Shown piece after piece: positions 43,194 through 58,111 of a stretch of DNA of 64,000 nucleotides; the first letter of the stretch is position 1, and each line of letters opens with the position of its first letter. The translations under genes and the position numbers were made by a program. The DNA is taken from positions 47,870 to 111,869 of the IMG/VR virus record IMGVR_UViG_3300028864_000019; one strand, written 5' to 3'. The DNA comes from a virus. Under the pieces are notes generated by a model, which ran no database searches, was not told the origin of the DNA, and saw only the letters and a list, made by a program, of their open reading frames with translations.

Positions 43194-44669
43194 ATGAGCA
43201 AAAAGAATAAGGATAATGATATAATTTTAAGTTTTGTCGGTGGAAGTAGGGACGATATTTGTGGATCTGCTTTATTAATTAGCTATCCTATAGGAAATGA
43301 CAAACATAAATGCGTTTGTCTAGAATGTGGCATGATACAAGGAGAATCAAAACCAGAGATAGAATATTCAATGAATAAAAAAATGGTTGAAAATATTCCA
43401 GTAGGAGGTATTTCGGGAGTGTTTTTAATGCACTCCCACGTCTGAGTAGACCATATTGGGAACACACCTATATTTGGACAAGATATATTCAAAGGTGAAA
43501 TAATTACAACAGAAGAATGTTTAATGATATCTAAAGAATTATTAAAAGATAGTGTGTATTTACATGATTGTTTAATAAAAGGTTTAAAAGCAAAAGGGAA
43601 AAGACCTAAAAACTTATATACTGAATTAGATATGTATAAGATGTTAGAGAAGGTAAAAACAGTTGAAACACATCAAGTATATAAATTTGATGATTGGTTA
43701 AGTTATGAATTTTATAATTCTGGACATGTATTAGGTGGTACTCAATTGAAACTTACTTTTAGACTACCTAACAATAATATAAAATCCTTAGTTTACACAA
43801 GCGATTTGGGATCAGATTACAATTTAAAATATAAACCATTTGTAAAGAAAAGAGATATAATTCCTAAGGCTTCAATGTACGTTTTTGAGGCAACTTATTC
43901 AAACTCTGAAAAGTGCTTTGATAAAAATTTAGTAGAAAAAGAAAGAAATGAACTAAAAGAAACTTTAACTAAATATTTAAAAAGTGGACACCGAGTATTT
44001 TTTCCTTCCTTTTCTTTCGGGCGTACCCAAGAGTTACAATTTTTAATAAATTCGTTTTTTAAAGATGAAGAATGGTTTAATGAAATACCAGTAACAATTG
44101 ATGGAAGATTAACTAATTCTATATGTGATACTTATAGCAAGATATTAAAATATGATGAATTTGAGGACTGGGAGAGAATAAAAAACTGGAAGAATTTTCG
44201 TTATAATAAAGAATATAAAGGTACTTTGGGAATATTATCTAAAAGAGAATGTGGAATTTACATAAGTTCTAGTGGATTTGTTCAACCTAAAACACGTAGT
44301 TGTGACTATGTTAAAAATTTTATGGGAGTTACAGGAGATCTAATTTGTTTCGTAGGATATTACGGAGCTGAAGGTTCAATTTCTCATGAATTAGTTACTA
44401 GACCAATAGGCACTCCTATTAAAATTGATGGAAGTACATTAATAAAAAGTTGTGATGTTCTTACTCAGAAAACATTTTCGAGCCACATTCAACAAGAAGA
44501 AATTTTTAGCTACTGGAGTCAAATAAACACAAATAAGATTCTAATACACCATTGTACTGAAGAAGGAAAAATTGAAATGAAAGAAAAGGGAACTGAATAT
44601 CTACAAAGTAAAAATAAAACAACTAAAATTGTAGGAGTAAGTAAATTTGCTTCACAATTCATTTTATAA
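43194..44669 (+). CDS. MBL-fold beta-CASP nuclease interrupted by in-frame TGA at 43443
   Basis: Both track ORFs share one frame; HSHV*VDH, SGHVLG, YTSDLG, EATY, FSFGRTQE, FSSH, H motifs. Confidence 0.85.
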
Positions 44670-44827
44670 ACAAATTAATGTAGAAATAAGGAGAGAAATA
44701 GAATGAAAAATTCAACTAAGCGTACATTATCAGGATTTAACTATCAGTCCTTAAATAATTTACAAAACCAACCAATTAAAATGTTAAATGAAAAGAAAAA
44801 GAATAACGAAAAGGTGGAGAAATAATT

Positions 44828-45019
44828 ATGAAAGAAACTAAAAATGTAAGTTTTTCAAAAGCAGTAATAACTGAGGAAGATGGAGAATTTAAGATTACAG
44901 AAGTTGGAAAAGATGATTCTAAAACATACAATCTAACAAATCAAATTAGAAAATGGATTGGAGAAGACGGACTAACTGTAACAATTAAAAAGGATAATGA
45001 TATACCATCTGAAGAATAA
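44828..45019 (+). CDS. small YonK-like protein
   Basis: 63 aa acidic beta-rich protein (ITEVGKDDSKTYNL) in SPbeta-like late-region context. Confidence 0.45.
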   Translation: MKETKNVSFSKAVITEEDGEFKITEVGKDDSKTYNLTNQIRKWIGEDGLTVTIKKDNDIPSEE

Positions 45020-45029
45020 AATGTGAACA

Positions 45030-45690
45030 AAGGCATGTACTAGAAATAGACGTGACCTTTCATTAAAAGAACTGTTTTATAAGGAGTAAAAGAATAACGA
45101 TCCTTTCCCTAGTGGGGGAATAATAATACCATGATTTGCTTGGCTATTGGGTAATACATAGTCTGTTATTCAAAGATTATAAAGAACGAGGTATAGATTC
45201 CCAACAAATATTGAAGTGAGTTAGAAACTCAGACAAAGAAGAATTTTGCCCAAGTGGGAATAAGGAAATCAATACTAAAAATTTACTAATAACATACTAA
45301 ATACTACAAACAGTGAATTTTATTAGTTGGTAATATACTTACCTCATACTCAATACTTTAAGTTGAGAGAACGACAATGAAGTATTTGCCTTGTTACGGG
45401 TAAATATGGAGTCTTATTTAGAGTTTTAGGTAAACTTAGGTGTAACTAGAGATTTGATCTTGAAAAATAAAAACCTATGATACAAATACGCTTCACAATG
45501 TGCGACAAAAATACATTGTATTGATAGATGGAGGCATTCTAGCTGTACCATCGTGACTAATTGTTCATTCTAGAATGATTAGATATTGGGTTGGAATATA
45601 TCCACACAAATAATGAATTGAGTTATGATGGCTCTAACAAAAAAGATGTATTCCCTTTTGTGATATATGGGAGGTTAAATAATAATATCA
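45030..45690 (+). ncRNA. candidate large structured ncRNA upstream of tRNA
   Basis: ~660 nt without long ORFs, with many hairpins; strand inferred from flanking genes. Confidence 0.45.
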
Positions 45691-45698
45691 CATTACAC

Positions 45699-45788
45699 GG
45701 AGAGTTGGCAGAGTGTCCGAATGCACTGGTTTGCTAAATCAGCATACGTTTATTCGTATCGAGGGTTAGAATCCCTCACTCTCCTCCA
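45699..45788 (+). tRNA. tRNA-Ser (GCT), atypical
   Basis: GGAGAGT/ACTCTCC acceptor, CTGGT-TTGCTAA-ATCAG anticodon arm, long variable arm, GAGGG-TTAGAAT-CCCTC T arm, encoded CCA. Confidence 0.88.
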
Positions 45789-46112
45789 AATAAAGCCTTC
45801 AACAGGATTAATGAATTACGATAGTTCTTTGTTAACTGGAAAAGCTTCCGATTATATGAAACTCGAAGTACAAGAGTTTTACCCTATGGGATTAGATGAA
45901 TAGAACATTACGGATAGGGATTAAATATTGTTCCAGATAAGTTTATTGTATAATATACCAATTTATATTATAAACTTAAATGTGCAATATGTAAATAGTA
46001 AAATGAATAGGAAATAAATTAAATATATGATAAAACTCATTGCATGTGATGTTATGAGCTTTTAATGTATTTAAAATTAATTAAAAATTAAAGAGTAAAG
46101 GGAAGATATGAG

Positions 46113-46319
46113 ATGTTAAAAGAAGATGGAAGAATGAGTAATAAAGATAAAAAGAAACAACACAAAAAGTATAAAGATGTTAAATGTAAGAATTGCAAAA
46201 GTAATATAGATATTGATGAAAAAGTGTCTTTGCAGGATTTTGAAAAGATAGGCACAAATGAAGAATATATTTTTTATTGCAATAAATGTGGAGAAAGTAC
46301 AGATATTATAAAGCTTTAG
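46113..46319 (+). CDS. small zinc-ribbon protein
   Basis: CKNC...CNKCG. Confidence 0.55.
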   Translation: MLKEDGRMSNKDKKKQHKKYKDVKCKNCKSNIDIDEKVSLQDFEKIGTNEEYIFYCNKCGESTDIIKL

Positions 46320-46362
46320 AAAACAAATTATGAAAGTAAAATAATAATGAGGGAGAATTATT

Positions 46363-47598
46363 ATGGAAGATGAAAGATATTTAAAATCGGAAATCGAGTC
46401 AAGAGAAAAATATATACATAGAATGTATTCTAACAAAACACAATTTAATATGATTAATAGAGAAATTGCAGAAGTAATTAATCAAGAACTTGGAACTGAC
46501 TTCCAAGAGAGTTATTTCCGTGGTATATATAAAATTTATGAAATTGCGTGTGCTGAATGTTTGGAATCTTTAAAAGGTGATAAAGCAGTAAAAAATAAAA
46601 TAGACGAAGTCACTGAATTGATTGGTGAGTTAGATGTTAAAAAGCAATTAATTCGTAATGATACTAATAAACTTAACAGAATAAAGAAAGACTTTATAAA
46701 GAATATTGAAATTGCAAATTACATAAATGAGTATATTGATAGAGAATGTGAAAACTTTCTACCTTTATCTTATAAAAGAATTGAAGATGAATCAGAAAAA
46801 ACACTAATTTGTTGCATTTCAGATTGGCATATAGGATACATTATTAAGGATTATAGAGGAAATAGTTATAATTATGAAATAGCTAAAAAGAGATTATCTA
46901 GATTCTTATCTGAAATAGAAAAAGAAATACATAAAAATGATATATCTAAAGTTATAGTAGTGCAAGCTGGAGATTTAACTGAAGGAATTTATATGCGTGG
47001 ACAAGATCAATCATATAGTTGTGAATTTAATAGTAATGAACAGATTGTTATGGCTGAGGAATTGCTATATGGATTTATTACAAGTATATCAGAAATGAAG
47101 GTAAATGTAGACTTATATTCAGTAGGTGGAAACCATCAGCGTGGAAACCAAGCTTATAAAGATGGAAATATTGAAGGAGATAACAACAATTATACCATAG
47201 TTAAGAATTTAAAGAAGTGGTTTACTTTAGCTAAGAATGATAGAGTCAACGTTTGTGATATTGATTTTAAAGAAGATTGTGGAGAGTTTGACTTAGGTTT
47301 TGGAGTTATAAAAGTTAAACATGGTGATAAAAGTCCTAAAGAAGATAAGAAATTCTATGACACAGAAACAAGTATGAATAATATAAAGTATGCTATGTTA
47401 ATAAGAGGACATTATCATAATTTTGGTGTAAGTTCACAAAATAATGGTGGGTACGTAACAACTATAGGTTCATTATTTGGTATGAATCCATATAGTGTGG
47501 ACAAACTTCAATGTACAACACATGCAAGTCAAACTCTAATTTTAGTTAACTATGATGGAGTTGAATATATAAGAGATATAAATTTACAAATCAATTAA
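46363..47598 (+). CDS. calcineurin-like metallophosphoesterase
   Basis: SDWHIG, GDLTEG, GGNH, HGD, GHYH. Confidence 0.88.
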   Translation: MEDERYLKSEIESREKYIHRMYSNKTQFNMINREIAEVINQELGTDFQESYFRGIYKIYEIACAECLESLKGDKAVKNKIDEVTELIGELDVKKQLIRNDTNKLNRIKKDFIKNIEIANYINEYIDRECENFLPLSYKRIEDESEKTLICCISDWHIGYIIKDYRGNSYNYEIAKKRLSRFLSEIEKEIHKNDISKVIVVQAGDLTEGIYMRGQDQSYSCEFNSNEQIVMAEELLYGFITSISEMKVNVDLYSVGGNHQRGNQAYKDGNIEGDNNNYTIVKNLKKWFTLAKNDRVNVCDIDFKEDCGEFDLGFGVIKVKHGDKSPKEDKKFYDTETSMNNIKYAMLIRGHYHNFGVSSQNNGGYVTTIGSLFGMNPYSVDKLQCTTHASQTLILVNYDGVEYIRDINLQIN

Positions 47599-47628
47599 AA
47601 TAAAATAAAGGATTAATGGTGAAAAGTT

Positions 47629-48225
47629 ATGGGAGAAGTATATCAACAACGGAATTTATTGCTAGAAGAAATCAAATTAGTAGATTACAAAGATAATAAT
47701 ACACTATATATTGATGATGAAATTACAACTGAATTTATAATAATGTTATCAAGACAATTAAAGAAACTTGCCACTAAACAACTATCATTGAGCAAGGAAG
47801 ATAGAACACCAATAAAATTAATCATAGCTTCTCCAGGAGGAAGTTTAGTTGATGGAATGCATTTTTGTGACCTAATGGAATATTACATTAATAAAGGGAT
47901 AGAAATTCATACATATTGTACAAGCTATGCTTATTCAATGGCATTCAAAATATTTATATGTGGATCTAAAAGATTTGTATATAAGAGAAGTGATTTAATG
48001 TGACACCAATGGAATAGATTTAGATACGGTACTGAGACATATCAAGATACTGTAAATGATAGAGAGCAATGCGATAGATGGTACAAGTTAATAGTTGATT
48101 TAATAACTGAGAAAACAGGTATAACTAAAGAACAATTTGATAGCTATACAAAGAGTAATAAAGACTTTTATATGGATGGTGCTACTGCTTTAAAATTAAA
48201 TGTTGCTGATGAAATAATTATATAA
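47629..48225 (+). CDS. ClpP-like serine protease interrupted by in-frame TGA at 48001
   Basis: IASPGGSL, AYSMA (Ser), SDLM*HQ (His), KDFYM (Asp), ALKLNVADEII; frame stays open to TAA at 48223-48225. Confidence 0.85.
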
Positions 48226-48234
48226 AGGATATAG

Positions 48235-48585
48235 GTGAGAATTATGTGTAAAGAAGAGTTAAATAAAGTTGAAGAAATAGAACCAAATCAGCCTATGGAA
48301 GAACAAGAATATTATAGTAAAGATGAAGTTTTAGATATTATAGAAGAAATAACACCTAGGATTGAAATCAATACTGATGAGTTAAATGGATTTGAATTAG
48401 ACGAAGATATATTTAAAAAAGGTTTGAAAGATATTAGTTTTGCTTGTGGGCAATTTATCGGATTAGTATCTGTAGGAGTAAATAATGCTGATGCTTTTCA
48501 ATATATTCTTAATGAAAGTACAGGTAGAATGAATTTAGAAGCCACAAAAATTAAACAAGATATTCAAGATGATAGTCAAGTATAA
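48235..48585 (+). CDS. hypothetical acidic protein
   Basis: 116 aa ORF. Confidence 0.6.
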   Translation: MRIMCKEELNKVEEIEPNQPMEEQEYYSKDEVLDIIEEITPRIEINTDELNGFELDEDIFKKGLKDISFACGQFIGLVSVGVNNADAFQYILNESTGRMNLEATKIKQDIQDDSQV

Positions 48586-48623
48586 AATAAATTAAATATT
48601 ATAAGTGAGGGAGATAATAAAAA

Positions 48624-49253
48624 ATGCAAGAATTAATTAAAGAAATGATACTAAATTCAGAAGAATCAGGTACAGTATTTATTGGTGATGGCATAGAAAT
48701 TGGTGAAACAGTTTTAGAATTAATGGAAGATGGAGTTCAATTCTGTGAAGCTGATTTTGATTATGTTGAAAATCTAATAGAAGAAAATGATATATTAGCA
48801 ATTGCTAAAAACATTTATGAAGATGGAGAAATAGAATATTTTATAGAAAAAGTCTTCAGTAAAGATGGAGAAACATTAGAAGATGATAGTGATATTGTTT
48901 TTATAGACTCCGATTTAGCTGATTGCATTGATATAAAGAAGTTTTCTGGAATGGTAATGTTAGTTGAATGTACATATGAAAATGATTCAGAAGAAGAATG
49001 TAATTATGACTGCGATAATTGTGAATATAGTGACGACGAAGATTACGAAAAAGAAATTGAAGAAGAAGATACAACAGAGATTTTATTTGAAGAACTTTTA
49101 TCAAGCATTGACGAACTGGATTTAGACAAATACTTAGTTGGAAATATCTATAATTTAATTAAAGATACAATTTCTGATGCTATTGAGATGGGCTACGAAG
49201 AAGGATTCGATGATTGTTTAAAGGACGTTAGAGAAAGTATTGATCATATTTAA
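48624..49253 (+). CDS. highly acidic hypothetical protein
   Basis: 209 aa, very D/E rich, CNYDCDNC motif. Confidence 0.65.
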   Translation: MQELIKEMILNSEESGTVFIGDGIEIGETVLELMEDGVQFCEADFDYVENLIEENDILAIAKNIYEDGEIEYFIEKVFSKDGETLEDDSDIVFIDSDLADCIDIKKFSGMVMLVECTYENDSEEECNYDCDNCEYSDDEDYEKEIEEEDTTEILFEELLSSIDELDLDKYLVGNIYNLIKDTISDAIEMGYEEGFDDCLKDVRESIDHI

Positions 49254-49400
49254 GTTAATAAATTAATATAAAAAGCAGTTAAAAGTAAAATTTTATGTCC
49301 TTATTAGGATTAGGTTGAAATATATCTAGTCCTTTTTATATGTAATTTTAGTTATGCTTATCAAGATGGATAGGTAAATAAAGATTATATAAGAAGGAGT

Positions 49401-50015
49401 TTGATAAAAATGAGTGAGATGAGAGTTTATCAAGACAAAATGTTAAATAGTAAAAAGGAAATTGTAGTATGTAATTGGGAACGAGGAGAAGGAAAAACTT
49501 ATTCTGTGTTTAGGAAGATCATAGAGAATAAGAACGGGAAGTATTTATATATTTCACCATTTTCAAGTAGAATACTACAAGATTATTTTAAAGAATACAC
49601 ATATAAAGAAAGTAATTCTATAAAATTATATAAATCATCTAGAGAAAGGGATTCTATAGAATTTAATGATGGTAACAAATTAGAAGTGTTTTATATTAAT
49701 CCTAATACTCAATTTAAAGCGTGTAGAAATATTGAAATTGCTTTCTTTGACGAATGTTATTTAAATAAAGAATATATTGATAGTATATTAAAACCTATGG
49801 ACGTTAAACAAATATATTGCATGATTACTAATGATAATATTGAATATATAGATAGTAGACAGTCTAAAATTACTCGTAGTAGTTTTTGTGATACTCAAAT
49901 AGAAGAATTAATGATTGAATACGCTGAAACACCTAAGAATAAAAATACAACGTTATCAAGGGAAAATATATTAAAGCAAATTAAAGTATTACAAGATATG
50001 AAGCAAGGTAATTAA
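49401..50015 (+). CDS. stand-alone terminase/helicase-like P-loop ATPase domain
   Basis: RVYQ, WERGEGKT Walker A-like, IAFFDE Walker B. Confidence 0.5.
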   Translation: MIKMSEMRVYQDKMLNSKKEIVVCNWERGEGKTYSVFRKIIENKNGKYLYISPFSSRILQDYFKEYTYKESNSIKLYKSSRERDSIEFNDGNKLEVFYINPNTQFKACRNIEIAFFDECYLNKEYIDSILKPMDVKQIYCMITNDNIEYIDSRQSKITRSSFCDTQIEELMIEYAETPKNKNTTLSRENILKQIKVLQDMKQGN

Positions 50016-50118
50016 TAGATTATTATACTCTACGGGGTTGTCATGCTAAAGCATGATTTGTTGTGGCGTAATCAAAGATTACTTACAACATATAATTAAT
50101 TTAATATGGTTTTAAGGT

Positions 50119-50156
50119 GTCTAGATGAGTTGTTGTCTAGATGAGTTGTTGTCTAG
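50119..50156 (+). repeat. tandem 16-bp repeat GTCTAGATGAGTTGTT x2.4
   Basis: Read directly. Confidence 0.85.
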
Positions 50157-50313
50157 TCTATTTTTAACGTATAATGCTTATTGTTTTTATGATATTTGCC
50201 TATTAGGTGGATAGCTAGAAATAATAAATTAATGTAATAAAGTATTGTAAATTAGTATTCTATATGGTAAAATTATCTTGTAGAATACCTAAAATAAATT
50301 ATATAGGAGGAAT

Positions 50314-50610
50314 TTGAATATGGAAAAAGTTAATTACAAATATAGTCAATCTGAAATGGTAGCTTACTTACTTCTTAATGGTTATACATATAATAATATT
50401 GAGGTGAAAGAAAATAAAAGATATAAAAGTGATTACAAAGTATTTTTTTATATTGAAGGCTATAAAGAAGATTTGATTAAATTGGAACAAGATTTTAAAA
50501 ATAAAACTAATATATGTCTACAAGATTATATCAACAAATTATTACAGATAAAAAGGGTAATAGCTGACGCTATTAGAACTCAAAATAATATGAAGAACAA
50601 AGAAGAGTAA
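50314..50610 (+). CDS. small DUF5659-like protein
   Basis: MVAYLLLNGY...KVFFYIE pattern. Confidence 0.45.
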   Translation: MNMEKVNYKYSQSEMVAYLLLNGYTYNNIEVKENKRYKSDYKVFFYIEGYKEDLIKLEQDFKNKTNICLQDYINKLLQIKRVIADAIRTQNNMKNKEE

Positions 50611-50748
50611 GTTTGTAAAGTGCTGATACAACTAATGTTAAATAAATTAAATATGAGTATTAAGTATGAAAGACTGAACTACATGCAGTATTAACTGTTG
50701 TGATATTCAGTCTTTTGTTGTGCGTAAAAATAAATTTAAGGAGGCATT

Positions 50749-51417
50749 ATGAAGATGCAAAACAATAATATAGGTGAATTAATAAGATATTTTATAATTG
50801 AAGAAGATAGTAAATTTTTAGAAATACAAGGTGGTAGTTTTATTCAGTCTGAAACTGGTGAATTTATAACAAAATCAGAGCATGACAAAATAATACAAAC
50901 TAAATTAGAAAAGTATAAAACAGAAATGTTTGCTACTGCTAATTATGTGTCTAATACTGAATTTGGCATAGAGAATGAACAAAGTTTAACTAAGAAGAAA
51001 GTTAAAAGGAAAAAGAGTGGTAAAGCAAGGGAGAATTTTGATAACGGTGAGTTCAATATAGTTTATAGGAATAAAATTGAGGGAGTGATGAATATGAAAT
51101 TAAATACAAATGAAAAGCTAGTATTTTATATAATGAGAGATTTCATTCAGTATCCTACTAATTGTATTGTAATTAATGATCATATTCCTACTATTAAAGA
51201 ACTAGAACCAATTATAGGATTAACTGAAAGAAGTATAATTACTGCTTTAAAATCTTTGGAAGATAAAAATATGTTAAAAAGAGTTCAATATGGTCATAAA
51301 AAAGCTATTTACATAAATCCAGAATATTATGCTTCAGGGAAAGAACTAGATTTAGATAGTTTGAAGTTATTTGGTTTAGTAAAAATTGATGATGAAAAAG
51401 TTAAAAGTTATTTATAG
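50749..51417 (+). CDS. RepL-like winged-HTH DNA-binding protein
   Basis: PTIKELEPIIGLTERSIITALKSLEDK...IYINPEY. Confidence 0.6.
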   Translation: MKMQNNNIGELIRYFIIEEDSKFLEIQGGSFIQSETGEFITKSEHDKIIQTKLEKYKTEMFATANYVSNTEFGIENEQSLTKKKVKRKKSGKARENFDNGEFNIVYRNKIEGVMNMKLNTNEKLVFYIMRDFIQYPTNCIVINDHIPTIKELEPIIGLTERSIITALKSLEDKNMLKRVQYGHKKAIYINPEYYASGKELDLDSLKLFGLVKIDDEKVKSYL

Positions 51418-51468
51418 AAATAAATTATAAAATAATGAGCTATGTGATATTAGCAATTTAGGAGGAAT

Positions 51469-52830
51469 TTGATTATGGAAATAAGAAAATGTAAAAAATG
51501 TGGACAAGAAAAAGAATTAAACGAGGAAAATTTTTATAAAAACAAAAATGGAAGTTTTGAAAATACATGTAAAGCTTGTAGGAATAAAGCAAAAACAGAA
51601 CAAGAAATTAAATATAGAGAAAAGTTCTATGCTAAAGATGGATATAAAGTTTGCAAATGTTGTAATATTAAAAAAGAGGTATCAGAATTTGGATTATATG
51701 CTAAAGCTAAAGATGGATATTTGTCTAAGTGTTTAAATTGTTCTAATGAGAAAGATACATGGAGTCAAAGGGATAAAGATATTATTATAGCTAATTATAA
51801 TAAATTAATAATCAAAGAGATAATTCCATTGCTTAGCGTTAATCGTACTGAAAAATCTGTATTACATATGAGTAAAAAACTAGGATTATATAAAATAAAT
51901 AATGTAGTAGAAGATTATGACAAAATAAAATATAAAGACATTAAAGGCAAAAGATACAAATTATGCAAGTGCTGTAATGAATATTTACCATTAGAATTTT
52001 TATATTTTCCAAAAGATAATACTTGTAGTGATGGTTTTAGAAACGTATGCAAAAAATGTAAAGGTGAGAACTATGCAATATCTGATTCATACATATGGAA
52101 AGATGAAGAAGTAATAATTATTCAAAATAATTATTCAGATATGACCAATAATGAAATGAAGAATGAATTTTTCCCACATTTAACAATTAATCAAATTATG
52201 GATAAAGCTCATAGTTTAAATTTACATAAAAGTGATGAAAGTAAATTAAGAGCAACAAATGACGCACAAACTGAGGAATGGAGAAATAAAATAAGTGAGA
52301 CTCGACTTAAAAATGGAAAATCAAAAGGCGAAAATAATCCAATGTTTGGTTCTGCAAGATTTGGTAGTTTAAATCCTAATTATAAAGGTGGAATTAGTAA
52401 TATAGAAAATGAATTAAGAAGAAATATTAACCAATGGAAATTAGATAGTATGAAAGAATGCAATTTCAAATGTATTATTACAGGGGAAAGGTTTGATCAT
52501 ATTCATCACTTATATAGTTTTGATAATATAGTTAGAGATACTTTAGAAGAATTAAAATTACCTATATATGAAACTATAAGTAATTATACAGATATGGAAA
52601 TAAAACAAATTATATGTAAATGTACAGAAATTCATTACAGGTATCCATTAGGGAAATGTATGAAAGAAGAATATCATAAAATATTTCATCAAAATTATGG
52701 ATATGGAAGAAATACACATAGTCAGTTTGATGAGTTCTTAATTAGATTTTTTGAAGGAGCATTTGACGAACAGTTAGAAGAACAATATAGAAGTAATAAA
52801 ATATTAAAAAAATTAGAAGTTGCTAATTAA
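51469..52830 (+). CDS. HNH-type homing endonuclease with zinc fingers and NUMOD3-like motifs
   Basis: Repeated CxxC, NPMFG/NPNYKGG, CIITG...HIHH...HKIFHQNYG. Confidence 0.75.
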   Translation: MIMEIRKCKKCGQEKELNEENFYKNKNGSFENTCKACRNKAKTEQEIKYREKFYAKDGYKVCKCCNIKKEVSEFGLYAKAKDGYLSKCLNCSNEKDTWSQRDKDIIIANYNKLIIKEIIPLLSVNRTEKSVLHMSKKLGLYKINNVVEDYDKIKYKDIKGKRYKLCKCCNEYLPLEFLYFPKDNTCSDGFRNVCKKCKGENYAISDSYIWKDEEVIIIQNNYSDMTNNEMKNEFFPHLTINQIMDKAHSLNLHKSDESKLRATNDAQTEEWRNKISETRLKNGKSKGENNPMFGSARFGSLNPNYKGGISNIENELRRNINQWKLDSMKECNFKCIITGERFDHIHHLYSFDNIVRDTLEELKLPIYETISNYTDMEIKQIICKCTEIHYRYPLGKCMKEEYHKIFHQNYGYGRNTHSQFDEFLIRFFEGAFDEQLEEQYRSNKILKKLEVAN

Positions 52831-52877
52831 TTTTGGTGACTTTTTATTATGTAAAAAATTAAGTAGGTGAAAATATA

Positions 52878-54251
52878 ATGGCAGATTTTAAGACAAAAGA
52901 TTTAGATGAGCAGATGAAAGGGAAAACTAGATGTACTAAGTGTGGAACAATACTTAGTAATACAAATAATTTTTACACATCGAGTTCAAAATTACATACT
53001 TATACTGGAAGAGTATCTTTATGTAAAGATTGTTTAACTAATTTTTATGTATCACTTTTAGAAGAAACTAATGATATAAAAATATCAATATATAAAATAT
53101 GTGAGTTATTGGATTTTGTATATCTCGAAGGAATATACAATAGTTCATTAACAGAAGCAGGATGGAATAAAGATTTCACTATAGTACAAAATGGATTAGA
53201 AGTATGGAAAAAATACATAAAAACAATAAATTCTCTTAAAAATTATAAAGGTTATGCTTTTGAACATGGAGATAAAATTGATTTAGGAATGAGTATTGTT
53301 GAGGATGATACTACCAAAGAAAAAGAAAATAGCTTAATTATATCTAAGCCTAAAGAGTTTACTGACGAAGAAATTGAACAACGAGTAAGAGATAAACAAA
53401 ATAAAGAAGATATTATTAGAATAATCGGATATGATCCTTTTCAGAATGAAATAGAAGAAGATAAATCAAAAATGTATGCCAAGTTGATAAATATGCTAGA
53501 TGAAGATAGTCAAAATGATGAGCTTAAAAATAGTGCAATAATAAGTATTATAAAAGGTCAAAATCAAGAAAATAAAATAAATGATGTTATAACAAATTTA
53601 AGTTCTGATATAAAAAGTATAAAAGACAATATTGGAACTATTAAAAGCTTAACCGACACTAAAGAAAAACTAAATAAAAGTTTATTGGCTTTAGCGAAAG
53701 ACAATAAGATTAGTGATTTATATAGTGGTCATAAAACAATCGGTGCAAATACATTAACGGGCATGGTTAAAAAGTTAAAAGAAATAGATTTAAAAGAAGC
53801 ACAAGTTAATTTATTTGATATTCAGACTTCTAATGGTATGTTACAAACAGCAAGATTATCCGCAAAAGCAATTGTAGAAAATCTTAATTTTGGCGATGAT
53901 GATTTAATAGATATGGTAAAATTCCAAAACGAAAAAATAAATTTTTATGAACAAGAATACAGTAAATTAAGAGAAGAAAATAGAAAATTAAAGGCGATTT
54001 GCTCTTTCAATGATGTAGATTATAAACAAGATGTTTTAGAAACAGATTATTATGATGTTTTGGACTACGGAGACATAAAGGATGGACAAGACTCTATTCA
54101 AAAGCAGAATTATAAAGAAGACCAAATAAGTTTTAATAATATGGTTGAGGAAATAGTACCTATTGACACTATGGAGCATATTGATAAGGTTATTAAAAAT
54201 AAAAAAGAAATTGAAAAACAAAAAATATTGAATAGTGTTATAAGTGAATAA
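52878..54251 (+). CDS. putative terminase small subunit / packaging accessory protein
   Basis: N-terminal CTKC..CKDC; directly upstream of the large terminase. Confidence 0.5.
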   Translation: MADFKTKDLDEQMKGKTRCTKCGTILSNTNNFYTSSSKLHTYTGRVSLCKDCLTNFYVSLLEETNDIKISIYKICELLDFVYLEGIYNSSLTEAGWNKDFTIVQNGLEVWKKYIKTINSLKNYKGYAFEHGDKIDLGMSIVEDDTTKEKENSLIISKPKEFTDEEIEQRVRDKQNKEDIIRIIGYDPFQNEIEEDKSKMYAKLINMLDEDSQNDELKNSAIISIIKGQNQENKINDVITNLSSDIKSIKDNIGTIKSLTDTKEKLNKSLLALAKDNKISDLYSGHKTIGANTLTGMVKKLKEIDLKEAQVNLFDIQTSNGMLQTARLSAKAIVENLNFGDDDLIDMVKFQNEKINFYEQEYSKLREENRKLKAICSFNDVDYKQDVLETDYYDVLDYGDIKDGQDSIQKQNYKEDQISFNNMVEEIVPIDTMEHIDKVIKNKKEIEKQKILNSVISE

Positions 54252-54442
54252 GCGAAGCTTCAAAATTAGTGGGTATTAGTAGAGATAAATTAAGATTGTT
54301 ATTAAATGATAATAATAATAATAATAGTGAATAGGCATTTAAATAAAAAAATATGTTTCAATAACTGAAGGCATGGTAACATGTCTTTTGTTGCGTTTAA
54401 GCAAACTTTATTGATATAAGAAGGAGGTGAATTAAATTCATT

Positions 54443-56337
54443 ATGGGTATCACAATTATAAATAAAGGTAATTTGACTCAAAAAAAGTTAGAAGGTTATT
54501 TAAAATACAATGAAATACTTGTATGGGGAAGAAGAAATCCTGTAAAGTTCGCAGAATTAGTGTTGGGACTTGAACTTATGGATTATCAAAAATATACATT
54601 TCAAGAATCATGGAGCAAACAATTTGCATTATGGTTGATGTCTCGTAATGGAGGCTGAGTAAATCAACTTTAAGTTCTCCATTTATAATGACAAAAATGA
54701 TGTTATTTCCAAACTTTCAAAGCTTTATACTTTCATTAACCGCAAGTCAAAGCCAAGATACCTTTCTTTGACAACTTAAAATGGAGTCAATAGCAAAAAA
54801 ACAAATAGAATCTTTTTGTGGATTAACAGATATATTTTTAGGAGAAGTTTCTGCAAGTGCTAACCATGATGGATTTGTTCACTCTCCTCAAGGATTTAGA
54901 TGTAAGCTATTTAACAACAGTCAAGTTACTACTGTTTCTGGGGAAGAAGATAATATTAGAGGGAAAAGATCAAATTTAAATTTGTATGATGAAAGTGGTT
55001 TCATAAGTGAAAACTATATTTCAGTTACAAAATCATTTTGTACACAGGATTCGTCGTTTAAGTTAGGTGGTGGTATAAACACCGAAACTATACCGATGAA
55101 TATTCCTAATCAATTATTGTTTTGTTCATCTGCTAGTAGTACGGATTCTGCATTTTATACATTATATAAAGAGTGGGCAAAGTTAATGTTTGCAGGAAGT
55201 AAAGACCATTTTGTAGCTGACTTAAATTGTGAGGTTATAATAGGAGCTACATTAAAAGGTAAAAAATTAAATATACCATTGTTATCACAATCTAAAGTTG
55301 ATGATGAAATAAGGTCAAACTCAGAGAAAGCAAATCGAGAATATTTTAATCGTTTTGATGCTGATGGTGGAAATAAACAACCTATAAAACGTGCAGTAAT
55401 TATGAAAAATTCATCAGTTAGAAAACCATTATTAATTAATGAAGGAAATATAAAAAGACACATTGCAATTTCATATGATCCAGCACATGATTATGATAAT
55501 TCAGCGACATCAGTAGGAGAATATATATATGATGAACAAGTTGGATGGAAATTAATAATTCAAAACTGTGTAAGTCTTGTGGATTTAGGGAAAAAGAAAA
55601 AAACTCCAATGAGAACGCCAGAACAAATTAAAGAGATAAAACAAATGCTAATAAATTATAACGGAAAAGGCAAGGCTGATTATGAGAATATAGATTGTTT
55701 ACTAGTTGATGCTGGTTCAGGAGGTGGTGGTCCGATAATCGCAGATTATTTTATGGACGACTGGGAAGATGAACAAGGAAATAAACATAGGGGATTAATT
55801 GATAAAGAAGCCTGTGCTGAACATGTAAATTCTTATCCGAATGCAGTAGGAAAATTAAAATTAGTATCACCTAAAAAATATAAAACAGAAATGTATGATG
55901 ATTTTGTAGAATTATTAAATTTAGGACTAATTGAATTTACAGATAATTATGATATGAAAGGGTACTTAAGTCTACCACAGGAAGGAAAAGAGATTGAAGA
56001 AATTGATGAGGATACGAATGAAAAGAAAAAGGTAAAATCAATAGATTATAAACAATACAATCTATCTTGGGACGAAGAATTGGCATTAAAGCAAATTGAT
56101 AACGCAAAAGAAGAATTAATTGCAATAAGAAGACAAGGTGATGATATAAATTATAAATATGAACTGCCTCCTGATAAAAAGAGTAAAATGCATGATGATA
56201 GAGCTTACACAATGGTAATGTTAGCTTGGCATTTAAAAAACCTTAGACGTGACGGAATAGTTAATAAGCAAGCACCACAAGTTGATTGGTCAACAGCACC
56301 AACATTTGTTTCATCAGTAAATTTCAATTCTATATAA
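54443..56337 (+). CDS. terminase large subunit interrupted by two UGA-containing inserts (54656-54660, 54769-54777)
   Basis: MDYQ adenine motif, SRNGG|KST split Walker A, IRGKRSN.NLYDESGF Walker B, YDPA and HDDRAY nuclease motifs; about 626 aa if both inserts are skipped. Confidence 0.88.
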
Positions 56338-56362: not shown

Positions 56363-58111
56363 TTGACAAAAAAACAATCTACAGAAATCCCAATCCCTCA
56401 ACTACAAAAGATAGATTTAACTATACCAGTTCTATCAGAAGGCGAAACAAAACAAGTGTCTAATATCGGTGGGAATTACATCTTATCAGATATAGAAACA
56501 TCTACTACTAAAGATTATTTTGATCCAAACTACATACAACAAGCTACATATGATGCACAAAGATTAAGTAATATTTATAGTACTGTATTAGATAAAAATA
56601 CATCATCTTATGTTACAACTATGGACGAATTATCCTCATTAGCACAGAACACTCAAACTAGTATAGATAAAATAAAGAAAATAAACGGAATAGTTAAATA
56701 TTACATAAACAAAGAAGATTTAATTGGTAGAGTGGTTGAAACTATAGAAAATAATATAAACATAAATTACAAAATTGATTATCCATCTCCTAGCAGTAAA
56801 AAAGGTACTAAACTAAAAAAAGAACAAAAAATGGAAGACGAATTAAAAGTAGTAATAGAAAAGTTTAATAAACAAATTAATATACCTAAGTTAATAGCCG
56901 ATAATGCAGTTATTACATATACAGAAGGTAATTTTATATTCTATTTAATGGGTGATAGTGAAAATGGTTATTCTATAGTAAATTATCCAATGGATATTAC
57001 TGAAATCACACCAATGAGAATTGATGACGACCCAGTAGTGTCTTTTAATGTTACTGAATTATCATCAAGGTTACAAGAGAGTAGAACAAAATATGGAAGA
57101 TTAAAAACAAATAAACTTATTGATATTGAAAAAACAATAGAAGACGAAGTTAAAAAATGTTATCCTACTGAAATATATGACGCTTATAAAGGGAAAGACC
57201 AATATGCTTTATTAAATCCACAAAAAATAGGATTAAATAGGATAAATAATTTAAAAGGGCTATATGGATTAACACCTATATTTAAAGCACTACAACCTCA
57301 ATTAATGTTGGAAACGGTTGATAAAAGTGACCAAAAAGTATTAATTCAAAAGACTAAAAAGATTTATTTGCAATTAACTGAAAAAGAATTAATGGAAAAG
57401 CCAAATGCCATTAATATGATAGGTCATGCACATGTGAGTTTACTTGAAGCTATGTCAAAAGATACTATTATATATACTGCTGACCCACAAGTACAAGATT
57501 TAAAATTGATTGAACCTAAAACTGAGTTGACTGATGAAAAAACTAAATCAGGTTATAAGTTAAGAATATTAGAAGCATTAGGAATATCATTTATTAGTTC
57601 AGAAGGTTCTAAATCTATAACAACTACTAAAATAAACTATGACGAACTATTAAAAATGGTTAATAGAATAACTAAGAGTTTAGAACCAATCCTTAATAAA
57701 TACTATCAGTTGGTATGTGAAGAAAATGGTTTTCCTTTGGAATATTCACCTACTATAACTATTGAATCTACTAAGTTGCTGGATTTAGAAACATTATTAA
57801 GGTTAGTAGAAACTATGTACTCAAAAATTGGATTAAGCTACGATACTATTTTGACAATGCTAGGATTAAATCCTGAAATTGAAATTAATAAACGTGTAAA
57901 AGAAAATAAAGTAACAATAGATGGCGTAGAAATGACTACTGATGATATTATGAGTCCTCATATAACATCTTTCACAACATCGGGAAAAGACGGAGACACG
58001 GTAACACATAATAATCTAGATTCTAATACCAATAAGAATAATAGTAAAAAAAATGAAAATATAGATAAGCAAGAATCAGATCAATCACGAAAAGAAGCAT
58101 TAAAAGTATGA
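56363..58111 (+). CDS. portal protein
   Basis: 582 aa directly after terminase; YGLTPIFKAL portal-like motif. Confidence 0.75.
   Translation: MTKKQSTEIPIPQLQKIDLTIPVLSEGETKQVSNIGGNYILSDIETSTTKDYFDPNYIQQATYDAQRLSNIYSTVLDKNTSSYVTTMDELSSLAQNTQTSIDKIKKINGIVKYYINKEDLIGRVVETIENNININYKIDYPSPSSKKGTKLKKEQKMEDELKVVIEKFNKQINIPKLIADNAVITYTEGNFIFYLMGDSENGYSIVNYPMDITEITPMRIDDDPVVSFNVTELSSRLQESRTKYGRLKTNKLIDIEKTIEDEVKKCYPTEIYDAYKGKDQYALLNPQKIGLNRINNLKGLYGLTPIFKALQPQLMLETVDKSDQKVLIQKTKKIYLQLTEKELMEKPNAINMIGHAHVSLLEAMSKDTIIYTADPQVQDLKLIEPKTELTDEKTKSGYKLRILEALGISFISSEGSKSITTTKINYDELLKMVNRITKSLEPILNKYYQLVCEENGFPLEYSPTITIESTKLLDLETLLRLVETMYSKIGLSYDTILTMLGLNPEIEINKRVKENKVTIDGVEMTTDDIMSPHITSFTTSGKDGDTVTHNNLDSNTNKNNSKKNENIDKQESDQSRKEALKV

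Follow-up and report, generated by a model that had tools for sequence, protein, structure and literature searches.

Stop-led coding gaps in the terminase and a nuclease gene of a large Firmicutes phage as candidate sites of natural translational bypassing

The window analyzed here, comprising the terminal 64 kb (64,000 nucleotides) of the 111,869-bp IMG/VR viral contig IMGVR_UViG_3300028864_000019, contains four TGA codons that interrupt three genes: one in the gene of a metallo-β-lactamase (MBL)/β-CASP nuclease (site 1), one in that of a ClpP-like protease (site 2), and two in terL, the gene of the large terminase subunit (sites 3 and 4). The four stops and their contexts had been pointed out in a preliminary description of the DNA, and direct reading confirms them. 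Homolog alignments likewise bear out its account of sites 1, 3, and 4 as inserts of 6, 5, and 9 nt that are extra relative to their families. Comparison with related sequences indicates that these three inserts are probably short coding gaps that the ribosome crosses by translational bypassing ("stop-hops"). We regard bypassing as the best explanation because a matched architecture of take-off codon, stop, and landing codon recurs with covariation and the genes that carry such inserts are under strong purifying selection. Coordinates of all features are collected in Table 1; the genome of the window is labeled G000, and related genomes and loci carry G and L numbers, respectively.

The terL gene gave no match in Pfam, PHROG, NCBIfam, or PDB sequence searches (PDB was searched with a terminase profile), but its product has >2,600 family members, of which some are named terminase. 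An alignment of 17 full-length members displays a Walker A motif (SRNGGKST) and a Walker B motif (LYDES). The AlphaFold model of one full-length member (P0004; mean pLDDT of 61.5, with a good C-terminal domain) matched the large terminases of T4 (gp17), HK97, Sf6, D6E, and herpesvirus with a Foldseek probability of 1.00, and the G20c nuclease with a TMt of 0.72. By its ATPase motifs, predicted fold, and portal neighbor, the product is thus assigned as the large terminase subunit. When the gene in the window was compared with its family using a DNA alignment of eight related loci, the 17-member protein alignment, and a frameshift-aware protein-to-DNA alignment, exactly two insertions (sites 3 and 4) and no other defect were found across its 627 codons, in keeping with the earlier remark that the terminase shows no further decay. 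Skipping both inserts restores exact collinearity with the 17-member alignment.

Site 3 lies between the GG and KS of Walker A, in the context GGA GGC/TGA GT/AAA TCA, with a Shine-Dalgarno (SD)-like GGAGG abutting the stop; the insert is missing from all aligned relatives. Site 4 follows the sequence ...QDTFL in the context CTT/TGA CAA CTT/AAA, in which the landing CTT is the same triplet as the take-off codon. The relatives lack the inserts of the window, but many carry others that are built alike. Loci L013 and L002, for example, with 84-89% terminase protein identity and ~12% nucleotide divergence, are free of sites 3 and 4 and have TGAG at codon 45. At locus L157, both spots are occupied by different inserts: GGC[TGACATAATACGGT]AAA at the site 3 spot, which is 14 nt long and has a cognate GGT landing triplet, and CTG[CGGTA]AAG at the site 4 spot.

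The nuclease gene matched Pfam Beta-Casp (30.9 bits, above the cut-off) and phrog_36352, with partial NCBIfam matches to aCPSF1 and Cas14 MBL-CASP. In an alignment of 16 family members, H81, H83, D85, and H86 are invariant; the sequence of the window reads ...MHSHV*VDHIGN against ...THQHI--DHSGN in the family, from which the 6-nt insert is missing. Skipping it gives exact collinearity with the 16 members and an HSHVDH motif; from this motif and the Beta-Casp match we read the product as an MBL/β-CASP nuclease. The site 1 context is CAC GTC/TGA GTA/GAC CAT, and its take-off codon, GTC, has a low frequency in these genomes (2.1 per 1000 codons). The insert recurs unchanged in G005/L014, a contig of separate sample origin with 9% divergence in the flanking bases; between G000 and G005, the nuclease genes have a synonymous divergence (dS) of 0.32-0.59 and a ratio of nonsynonymous to synonymous substitution rates (dN/dS) of 0.04-0.09 on both sides of the insert. 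Searches of viral contigs with the nuclease identified G005 only, plus distant intact genes. The architecture of take-off codon, stop, and matched landing codon described earlier is complete at sites 1 (GTC/GTA) and 4 (CTT/CTT) and extends to codon positions 2-3 at site 3 (GGC/AGT). The described sharing of a 14-mer by sites 1 and 3 (11 of 14 bases identical) and of TGACA by sites 2 and 4 was also found as stated.

Several homologs annotated as truncated begin within the same motifs. The N-termini of three nuclease homologs (P0121, P0144, and P0148) read MSPVDHIGN, MIDH, and MSDDSVDHIGN, and that of a terminase homolog (P0006) reads MTKGKSTL. These are the starts that TGA-led gaps of 11, 5, 17, and 11 nt, respectively, would be expected to produce. 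As judged from the protein N-termini alone, such gaps would lie at the same two catalytic-motif positions, with predicted sequences of TGACTAAAGGT, TGATT, and a TGAGT-led gap.

In the proposed mechanism, the ribosome would pause while its P site holds the last real codon (GTC, GGC, or CTT) and its A site holds UGA, a codon slow to decode and read by one release factor only. The peptidyl-tRNA would release its codon, the mRNA would slide by 6, 5, or 9 nt, and the same tRNA would re-pair with the triplet that ends the insert (GTA, AGT, or CTT), with decoding restarting at the next codon. The nuclease would then have its HSHVDH motif intact, and the terminase its ...SRNGGKSTL... and ...QDTFLKME... 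segments. We infer the hop itself, as well as its efficiency and any regulatory or protective role, from the sequences.

To place these sites in context, we surveyed 91 distinct terminase loci, including those of Clostridium cuniculi and Paenibacillus isolate genomes, and found short inserts of 2-15 nt that represent 16 independent events. In these loci and in four further clades added later, each short insert that disturbs the frame in a well-aligned region directly follows a complete codon, and skipping it restores exact collinearity. Most begin with TGA, others with TAG or a very rare sense codon (CGG, 0.03-0.1 per 1000 codons; ACG, 2-3 per 1000), and TAA occurs in one 2-nt (+2) case only. 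Ordinary genes in these genomes end with TAA in 71-77% of cases and with TGA in 7-8%; the choice of stop is therefore opposite to that expected of random damage and fits slow termination by a single release factor. The displacements over the family (+2, +4, +5, +6, +7, +9, +12, +14, and +15) form a continuum from frameshifting to hopping.

The final three bases of the insert are identical to the preceding codon, or synonymous with it in the same codon box, in 11 of the 16 events, against a null expectation of 3.5% (binomial P ~4e-13); in the remaining five, the landing triplet matches at two of three positions. At codon 45, where three lineages carry different inserts, the take-off and landing codons covary as GAA/GAG, GAG/GAA, and GAT/GAC. 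At codon 31, five lineages carry CGN[TAG+N] in which N is C, T, or A and never G (the break in L083/84 being TAGA). An inosine-wobble (I34) tRNA-Arg is expected to pair with C, T, and A but not with G, and the avoidance of G thus fits re-pairing by such a tRNA.

Mapped onto the terminase tree, the inserts are patchy, with the same positions filled in separate clades beside insert-free sisters. The recurrent positions (codons 31-32, 42-50, 72, 84, 108, and 184) fall on or next to the adenine-binding YQ region, Walker A, and Walker B, and the same sites are struck by unrelated inserts in distant clades. The preliminary description had counted relaxed selection in this genome among the signs of pseudogenes. 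In pairs of genes with the same inserts (L092-L125, L047-L048, L059-L127, and L011-L101), dN/dS was 0.02-0.13 upstream of, between, and downstream of the inserts. For L092 versus L125 and L047 versus L048 the ratio was 0.02-0.06, with similar values for the other two pairs and dS ranging from 0.2 to saturation. Analogous inserts are common to contigs from up to seven samples (L004-L010), and isolate genomes with inserts include Clostridium cuniculi, which has three in one terL, Paenibacillus pini JCM 16418, and Paenibacillus sp. CGMCC 1.60092. Among the 70 closest terminase clusters, about two-thirds have truncated gene calls, which start at Met46, Met66-85, Met109, or near codon 170, and five protein clusters with 61-91% identity are called from Met109, just past site 4. 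These truncated calls suggest, at the sequence level, that stop-led gaps are common in the family.

Table 1 Locations of the gaps, genes, and comparative inserts discussed in the text. Positions are those of the window unless a locus is named; inserted bases are in square brackets.
Feature	Location	Strand	Remarks
MBL/β-CASP nuclease gene	43194..44669	+	~489 codons with the 6-nt gap skipped
Site 1 take-off codon GTC (Val)	43440..43442	+	Last codon aligned ahead of the gap
Site 1 coding gap TGAGTA	43443..43448	+	Inside HxHx/DH, between HSHV and DH; TGA 43443-43445; proposed landing GTA 43446-43448; decoding would resume at GAC 43449-43451
tRNA-Ser(GCU)	45699-45788		Sole tRNA of the contig; also in G002; no bearing on UGA decoding
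ClpP-like protease gene	47629..48225	+	Pfam CLP_protease 1.8e-19; PHROG head maturation protease
Site 2 in-frame TGA	48001..48003	+	Context ATG TGA CAC; beside catalytic His (LM*HQ)
Zn-ribbon and HNH/EndoVII-like protein	51469..52830	+	453 aa; two genes upstream of terL
Large terminase gene terL	54443..56337	+	627 codons with both gaps skipped; adjoins the portal gene
Site 3 take-off codon GGC (Gly)	54653..54655	+	Overlapped by SD-like GGAGG
Site 3 coding gap TGAGT	54656..54660	+	Between GG and KS of Walker A; TGA 54656-54658; proposed landing AGT 54658-54660; decoding would resume at AAA 54661-54663
Site 4 take-off codon CTT (Leu)	54766..54768	+	
Site 4 coding gap TGACAACTT	54769..54777	+	9 nt, after ...QDTFL; missing from relatives; TGA 54769-54771; proposed landing CTT 54775-54777; decoding would resume at AAA 54778-54780
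Portal gene (control)	56363..58111	+	Genuine TGA stop at 58109-58111, then ribosome-binding site (RBS) and TTG start of next gene
Inserts at terminase codon 45	Three lineages of relatives		GAA[TGAG]TTA; GAG[TGAA]TTC; GAT[TGAC]TTT
Insert in relatives			CTT[TGATT]GAC
Inserts in relatives			CTT[TGAACTA]GGA; CTG[TGAGCTA]GGA
Insert in relatives			CAG[TGACAA]AAG
Insert in relatives			CTT[TGACGAAGGCTT]TCT
Insert in relatives			CGC[TAGGTTAACTAGCGT]AGA
Insert in relatives			CGN[TAG+C/T/A]AAA
Insert in relatives			GTG[TA]ATG
Intein loci	L078, L080, L082, L093, L096, L112, L113, L135		432 and 1026-1056 nt; L096 mini-intein
Large terL insert	L004:3190-3452		263 nt
Large terL insert	L004:3966-4282		317 nt; L004, with both of its inserts, is the terL of G001
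Large terL insert	L092:1730-1996		267 nt

A number of observations weigh against bypassing. At site 3, the landing triplet would pair with the Gly tRNA at codon positions 2-3 only. The inserts at sites 3 and 4 are known from one metagenome contig, with no independent copy, and with two hops inside 37 codons the losses at each would compound. A search of the gap sites for stimulatory elements revealed none that they have in common. The 15-nt Arg-flanked insert of L057 has a 6-bp hairpin that holds the take-off codon and the stop (-14.4 kcal/mol, z -2.1), and small hairpins of 4-7 bp occur at site 1, L079, and L042; apart from that of L057, the hairpins are not significant. SD-like runs are present at some sites only (GGAGG at site 3 and GGGG at codon 31). 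Also to be set against bypassing is the occurrence of what looks like ordinary decay in relatives: a CYTH-like gene that is intact in G000 (54258-54755) has in G001 (C1:8283-8360, minus strand) both an AGA-to-TGA change and a 1-nt deletion in an A run, and the terminase of L099 has a TAT-to-TAA substitution. Finally, the phage collection that we searched contains no cultured plaque-forming phage of this terminase family.

The last two of these points, together with an extra uncompensated indel in L003 and the plain nonsense substitution at site 2, speak for the rival view that the interrupted genes are simply dead, as in a defective prophage or a non-viable variant with ordinary inactivating mutations. 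We consider this explanation very unlikely. The inserts are the sole defects in otherwise intact 627-codon genes, they lead with TGA or TAG and not with the common TAA, they obey a landing rule with covariation, and they recur at the same sites in separate clades, while purifying selection persists downstream of inserts common to diverged pairs. The presence of inserts in isolate genomes, the low dN/dS, and the identity of site 1 in another sample argue against simple decay and against artefacts of assembly or sequencing. Apart from the metagenome-assembled origin of the window, little speaks for such artefacts, to which we assign a negligible probability; stop-led inserts of 5-9 nt correspond to no known error mode, and analogous inserts were recovered from several samples.

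Could the inserts instead be translated? No frame change is involved at sites 1, 2, and 4, termination at UGA is weak when a C follows, and readthrough is the sole route to a full-length protein at site 2; a +1 shift that adds a single residue could, moreover, account for the 4-nt inserts. Decoding of this kind, by readthrough at sites 1 and 4 (adding 2 or 3 residues) and by +1, +2, or -1 frameshifting elsewhere, nevertheless has little to recommend it overall. Two additional residues between HxHx and DH would destroy the invariant metal-binding spacing, the zero frame at site 3 meets TAA four codons on, and any simple shift there would yield GGLSKS or GGSKS and not GGKS. Frameshifting also leaves unexplained the constant synonymy between the "extra" codon and the codon before it and the avoidance of G by N at TAG+N. 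More specific variants were rejected as well. An RF2-type +1 frameshift at site 4 would enter a closed frame (after CTT T: GAC AAC TTA AAA TGG AGT CAA TAG). Reading TGA as Trp merges the open reading frames and can repair neither site 3 nor the HxHxDH spacing. Suppressor readthrough finds no suppressor tRNA in five related genomes, and TGA ends the portal and other genes. The preliminary description had itself set aside a reassignment of the code, and we concur: other genes truly terminate at TGA, the search for a suppressor tRNA gave nothing, and the reading frame is altered at site 3. Removal or neutralization of the extra bases before translation, by RNA excision, editing, or transcriptional slippage, is improbable as well. 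The inserts are short and in conserved positions, and the same gene hosts inteins and probable introns; yet the 2-15-nt inserts have no common boundary motif for a splicing or editing machine, no homopolymer runs occur at the sites, and the only Rfam match between 42000 and 58000 is the tRNA. Their common features are in-frame ones (a stop or rare codon and a cognate end triplet) that would be sensible only for a P-site tRNA, and nothing in this analysis requires excision at the RNA level. There is, lastly, the scenario of termination followed by re-initiation, with the fragments acting as a split enzyme. Gene callers do begin truncated proteins at downstream Met codons (Met46, Met109, and others), and with inserts near codons 31-45 an N-terminally shortened terminase might conceivably work. 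Against this, sites 1 and 3 cut within HxHxDH and between the GG and KS of the P-loop, the resumption points have neither a start codon nor an RBS, and the 36-codon segment between sites 3 and 4 lacks a start codon yet has a dN/dS of 0.07. We regard a split enzyme as a remote prospect.

Site 2 forms a separate class. The position is TGC (Cys) in G005, a 95%-related strain, and Ile in G001; only one lineage carries the stop, and no cognate landing triplet that gives an open frame was found. By comparison with these relatives, it is a TGC-to-TGA point substitution and neither an insert nor a hop site. The stop would be a recent nonsense mutation or else a leaky UGA-C that a near-cognate tRNA reads. 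Recoding as selenocysteine, for which the Cys homolog in G005 would speak, was rejected: no significant hairpin resembling a selenocysteine insertion sequence was found (z -1.4), and the position is variable and beside the catalytic His.

Of the proposal in the preliminary description of one system gating three genes, the stop-hop architecture is supported for the inserts of the terminase and the nuclease and not for ClpP, and a phage-wide checkpoint over three late functions fits the comparative sequence data poorly. Turnover of the inserts between near-identical strains argues against a fixed regulatory circuit; the pattern looks more like recurrent, tolerated or protective inserts at the DNA level that are rescued by the ribosome than like conserved regulation. 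One possibility, which we put forward tentatively and consider rather doubtful, is that the inserts are armor against, or scars from, conflict with site-specific nucleases. A few extra bases in the most conserved stretches (the Q motif, Walker A, Walker B, and HxHxDH) would break the target sites of homing endonucleases, inteins, or host nucleases, and the cost would be paid by a ribosome hop. The T4 mobA/gene 60 cassette has been interpreted along these lines; the inserts here would be a miniature version of it that occurs many times over. Hints in this direction are an intein site, probable introns, synonymous changes around Walker A, HNH/EndoVII-like genes, and the turnover of inserts between close strains; they fit nuclease conflict at least as well as a regulatory checkpoint. 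Alternatively, terminase output could, through the efficiency of the hop, sense how active RF2/RF1 is in spore-forming hosts.

The inteins are found at terminase codon 73, directly after the GGK of Walker A and 3 nt downstream of the site 3 position. They are class-3-like (Ala1...THN), starting with ALSLDTKIPTP... and ending with ...THN ahead of Ser or Thr. Larger inserts of 263, 317, and 267 nt are situated near Walker B and at codon 343 and have a GC content of 0.30-0.33. The length of neither L004 insert is a multiple of three; that of the 267-nt L092 insert is, although stops interrupt its frame. These inserts probably represent group I introns, but none matched Rfam at the gathering threshold. 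In the viable and well-studied Streptococcus phage 2972 (L195, 1448-2991), terL is annotated as two coding sequences 285 nt apart and resumes with WTVAEGAIY, a break that looks like an intron and not a short gap. Between the window (54640-54680) and L013, six codons flanking the Walker A insert contain nine synonymous differences, including TCA/AGT and TTA/CTC, and the sequence on either side is otherwise near-identical. The pattern hints at a conversion tract or at selection acting directly on the DNA. The 453-aa protein encoded upstream of terL had weak matches to PHROG 1035 (endonuclease VII, 1.4e-13) and PHROG 2255 (HNH, 9.5e-10) and no Pfam match above the cut-off. In G002 (L002:1377-2582), a different, 401-aa open reading frame with the same repeated module is inserted immediately upstream of terL. 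The two proteins may each be a free-standing homing endonuclease.

Outside terL and the nuclease gene, an all-against-all tblastn comparison of six related genomes identified no more stop-led inserts, but only homopolymer frameshifts and one pseudogene. The frameshifts are in A8 and A6 runs (G005 at ~3093, minus strand, and G007 at ~89670), in the genes of an acidic protein homologous to that at 48624-49253 in the window and of a GIY-YIG endonuclease, and could reflect slippage, sequencing error, or decay. A scan of G000 and G001 for a codon, a stop, and a recurrence of the same codon, as the preliminary description had proposed, recovered site 1, but no other site, being swamped by ordinary gene junctions. 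The TGA of the portal gene is followed by AGGTGGTGA and then the TTG start of the next gene, and a second true TGA stop, at ~62526, forms an ATGA-type overlap with the start of the following gene.

The contig is estimated by CheckV to be 54% complete and has ~26% GC; related contigs are 120-218 kb in length and 88-98% complete. In gene content, which includes a YonK-like protein, it corresponds to the large temperate Firmicutes phages of the SPbeta type. The closest homologs in named organisms are from Clostridium (C. cuniculi and C. perfringens), Paenibacillus, and Bacillus. No near DNA match to the window was found in the phage collection, in which the terminases are distant only (<28% identity), and the plasmid collection contains one intact homolog.

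The nearest precedent is a candidate UUA-triggered bypass in the terL genes of Streptomyces phage Hau3 and two prophages, with frame-breaking inserts of 10 and 7 nt (PMC10732093; PMC5009743). The Hau3 terminase has two 10-nt UUA-led inserts, the first within ...KGWG/KDPLL...; a junction peptide was detected by mass spectrometry in E. coli when UAA replaced UUA, and 3 of 100 Streptomyces phage terminases were affected (PMC10732093). By our reading, the first insert lies in the P-loop; the other precedes ...TFVVLNETHH..., which we take to be the Walker B strand. The two systems are alike in having short terL inserts that are missing from relatives, a slow leading codon, a proposed landing codon, and spore-forming hosts. 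They differ in that the inserts here are led by a natural stop (TGA or TAG) or by CGG/ACG instead of UUA, and in that the gaps here span 2-15 nt in dozens of lineages and at least nine positions of one terminase family, which is unrelated to that of Hau3 at the sequence level. An MBL nuclease is also affected here, the hosts are low-GC Firmicutes, and the phenomenon is known from sequences.

Synthetic stop-hops and hungry-codon hops have been described in E. coli since Weiss et al. 1987 (reviewed in PMC5009743). They too involve matched codons around a stop, a slow A-site codon, and a peptidyl-tRNA that detaches and re-pairs a few nucleotides downstream, but were engineered or incidental and low-level, whereas the genes here are natural and under selection. 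As of the 2016 review, no natural in-frame stop-hop was known (PMC5009743). T4 gene 60 contains a 50-nt gap with a nascent-peptide signal and defined stem-loops and represents a single homologous element; the mobA/gene 60 insert is tied to homing-endonuclease conflict and has been proposed to protect from cleavage (PMC5462505; bioRxiv 10.1101/2022.08.31.505936; PMC5009743). The inserts reported here share with gene 60 the take-off codon, adjacent stop, and matching landing codon, and the L057 hairpin resembles the gene 60 take-off hairpin; they differ in being 2-15 nt long, heterogeneous, and devoid of a common signal. The byps of Magnusiomyces mitochondria, GC-rich mobile elements of 27-55 nt (PMC5009743), are similar as many short coding-region inserts that are made harmless by translational jumping between matched codons. 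Our literature search returned nothing on stop-led gaps in Firmicutes phage terminases. A further parallel is the programmed +1 frameshift of the RF2 gene prfB, which takes place at CUU UGA C with an upstream SD sequence. The CTT TGA C of site 4, the GGAGG at the stop of site 3, and the use of an A-site stop as the pause are reminiscent of prfB, and release-factor level could likewise set the efficiency. The displacement needed here, however, is +9, +5, or +6 and not +1, and site 4 has no open +1 frame.

Very few natural examples of translational bypassing have been described. In this phage family, dozens of gaps of 2-15 nt that are independent and naturally selected lie at defined positions in two enzymes and can be set beside matched insert-free alleles, which provides a comparative data set for take-off rules, landing-site choice, and competition with release factors. 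For annotation, it implies that phages with truncated terminase calls may be wrongly scored as defective. If the gaps do protect against endonucleases or serve as release-factor sensors, they would constitute a new layer of phage genome conflict or late-gene control.

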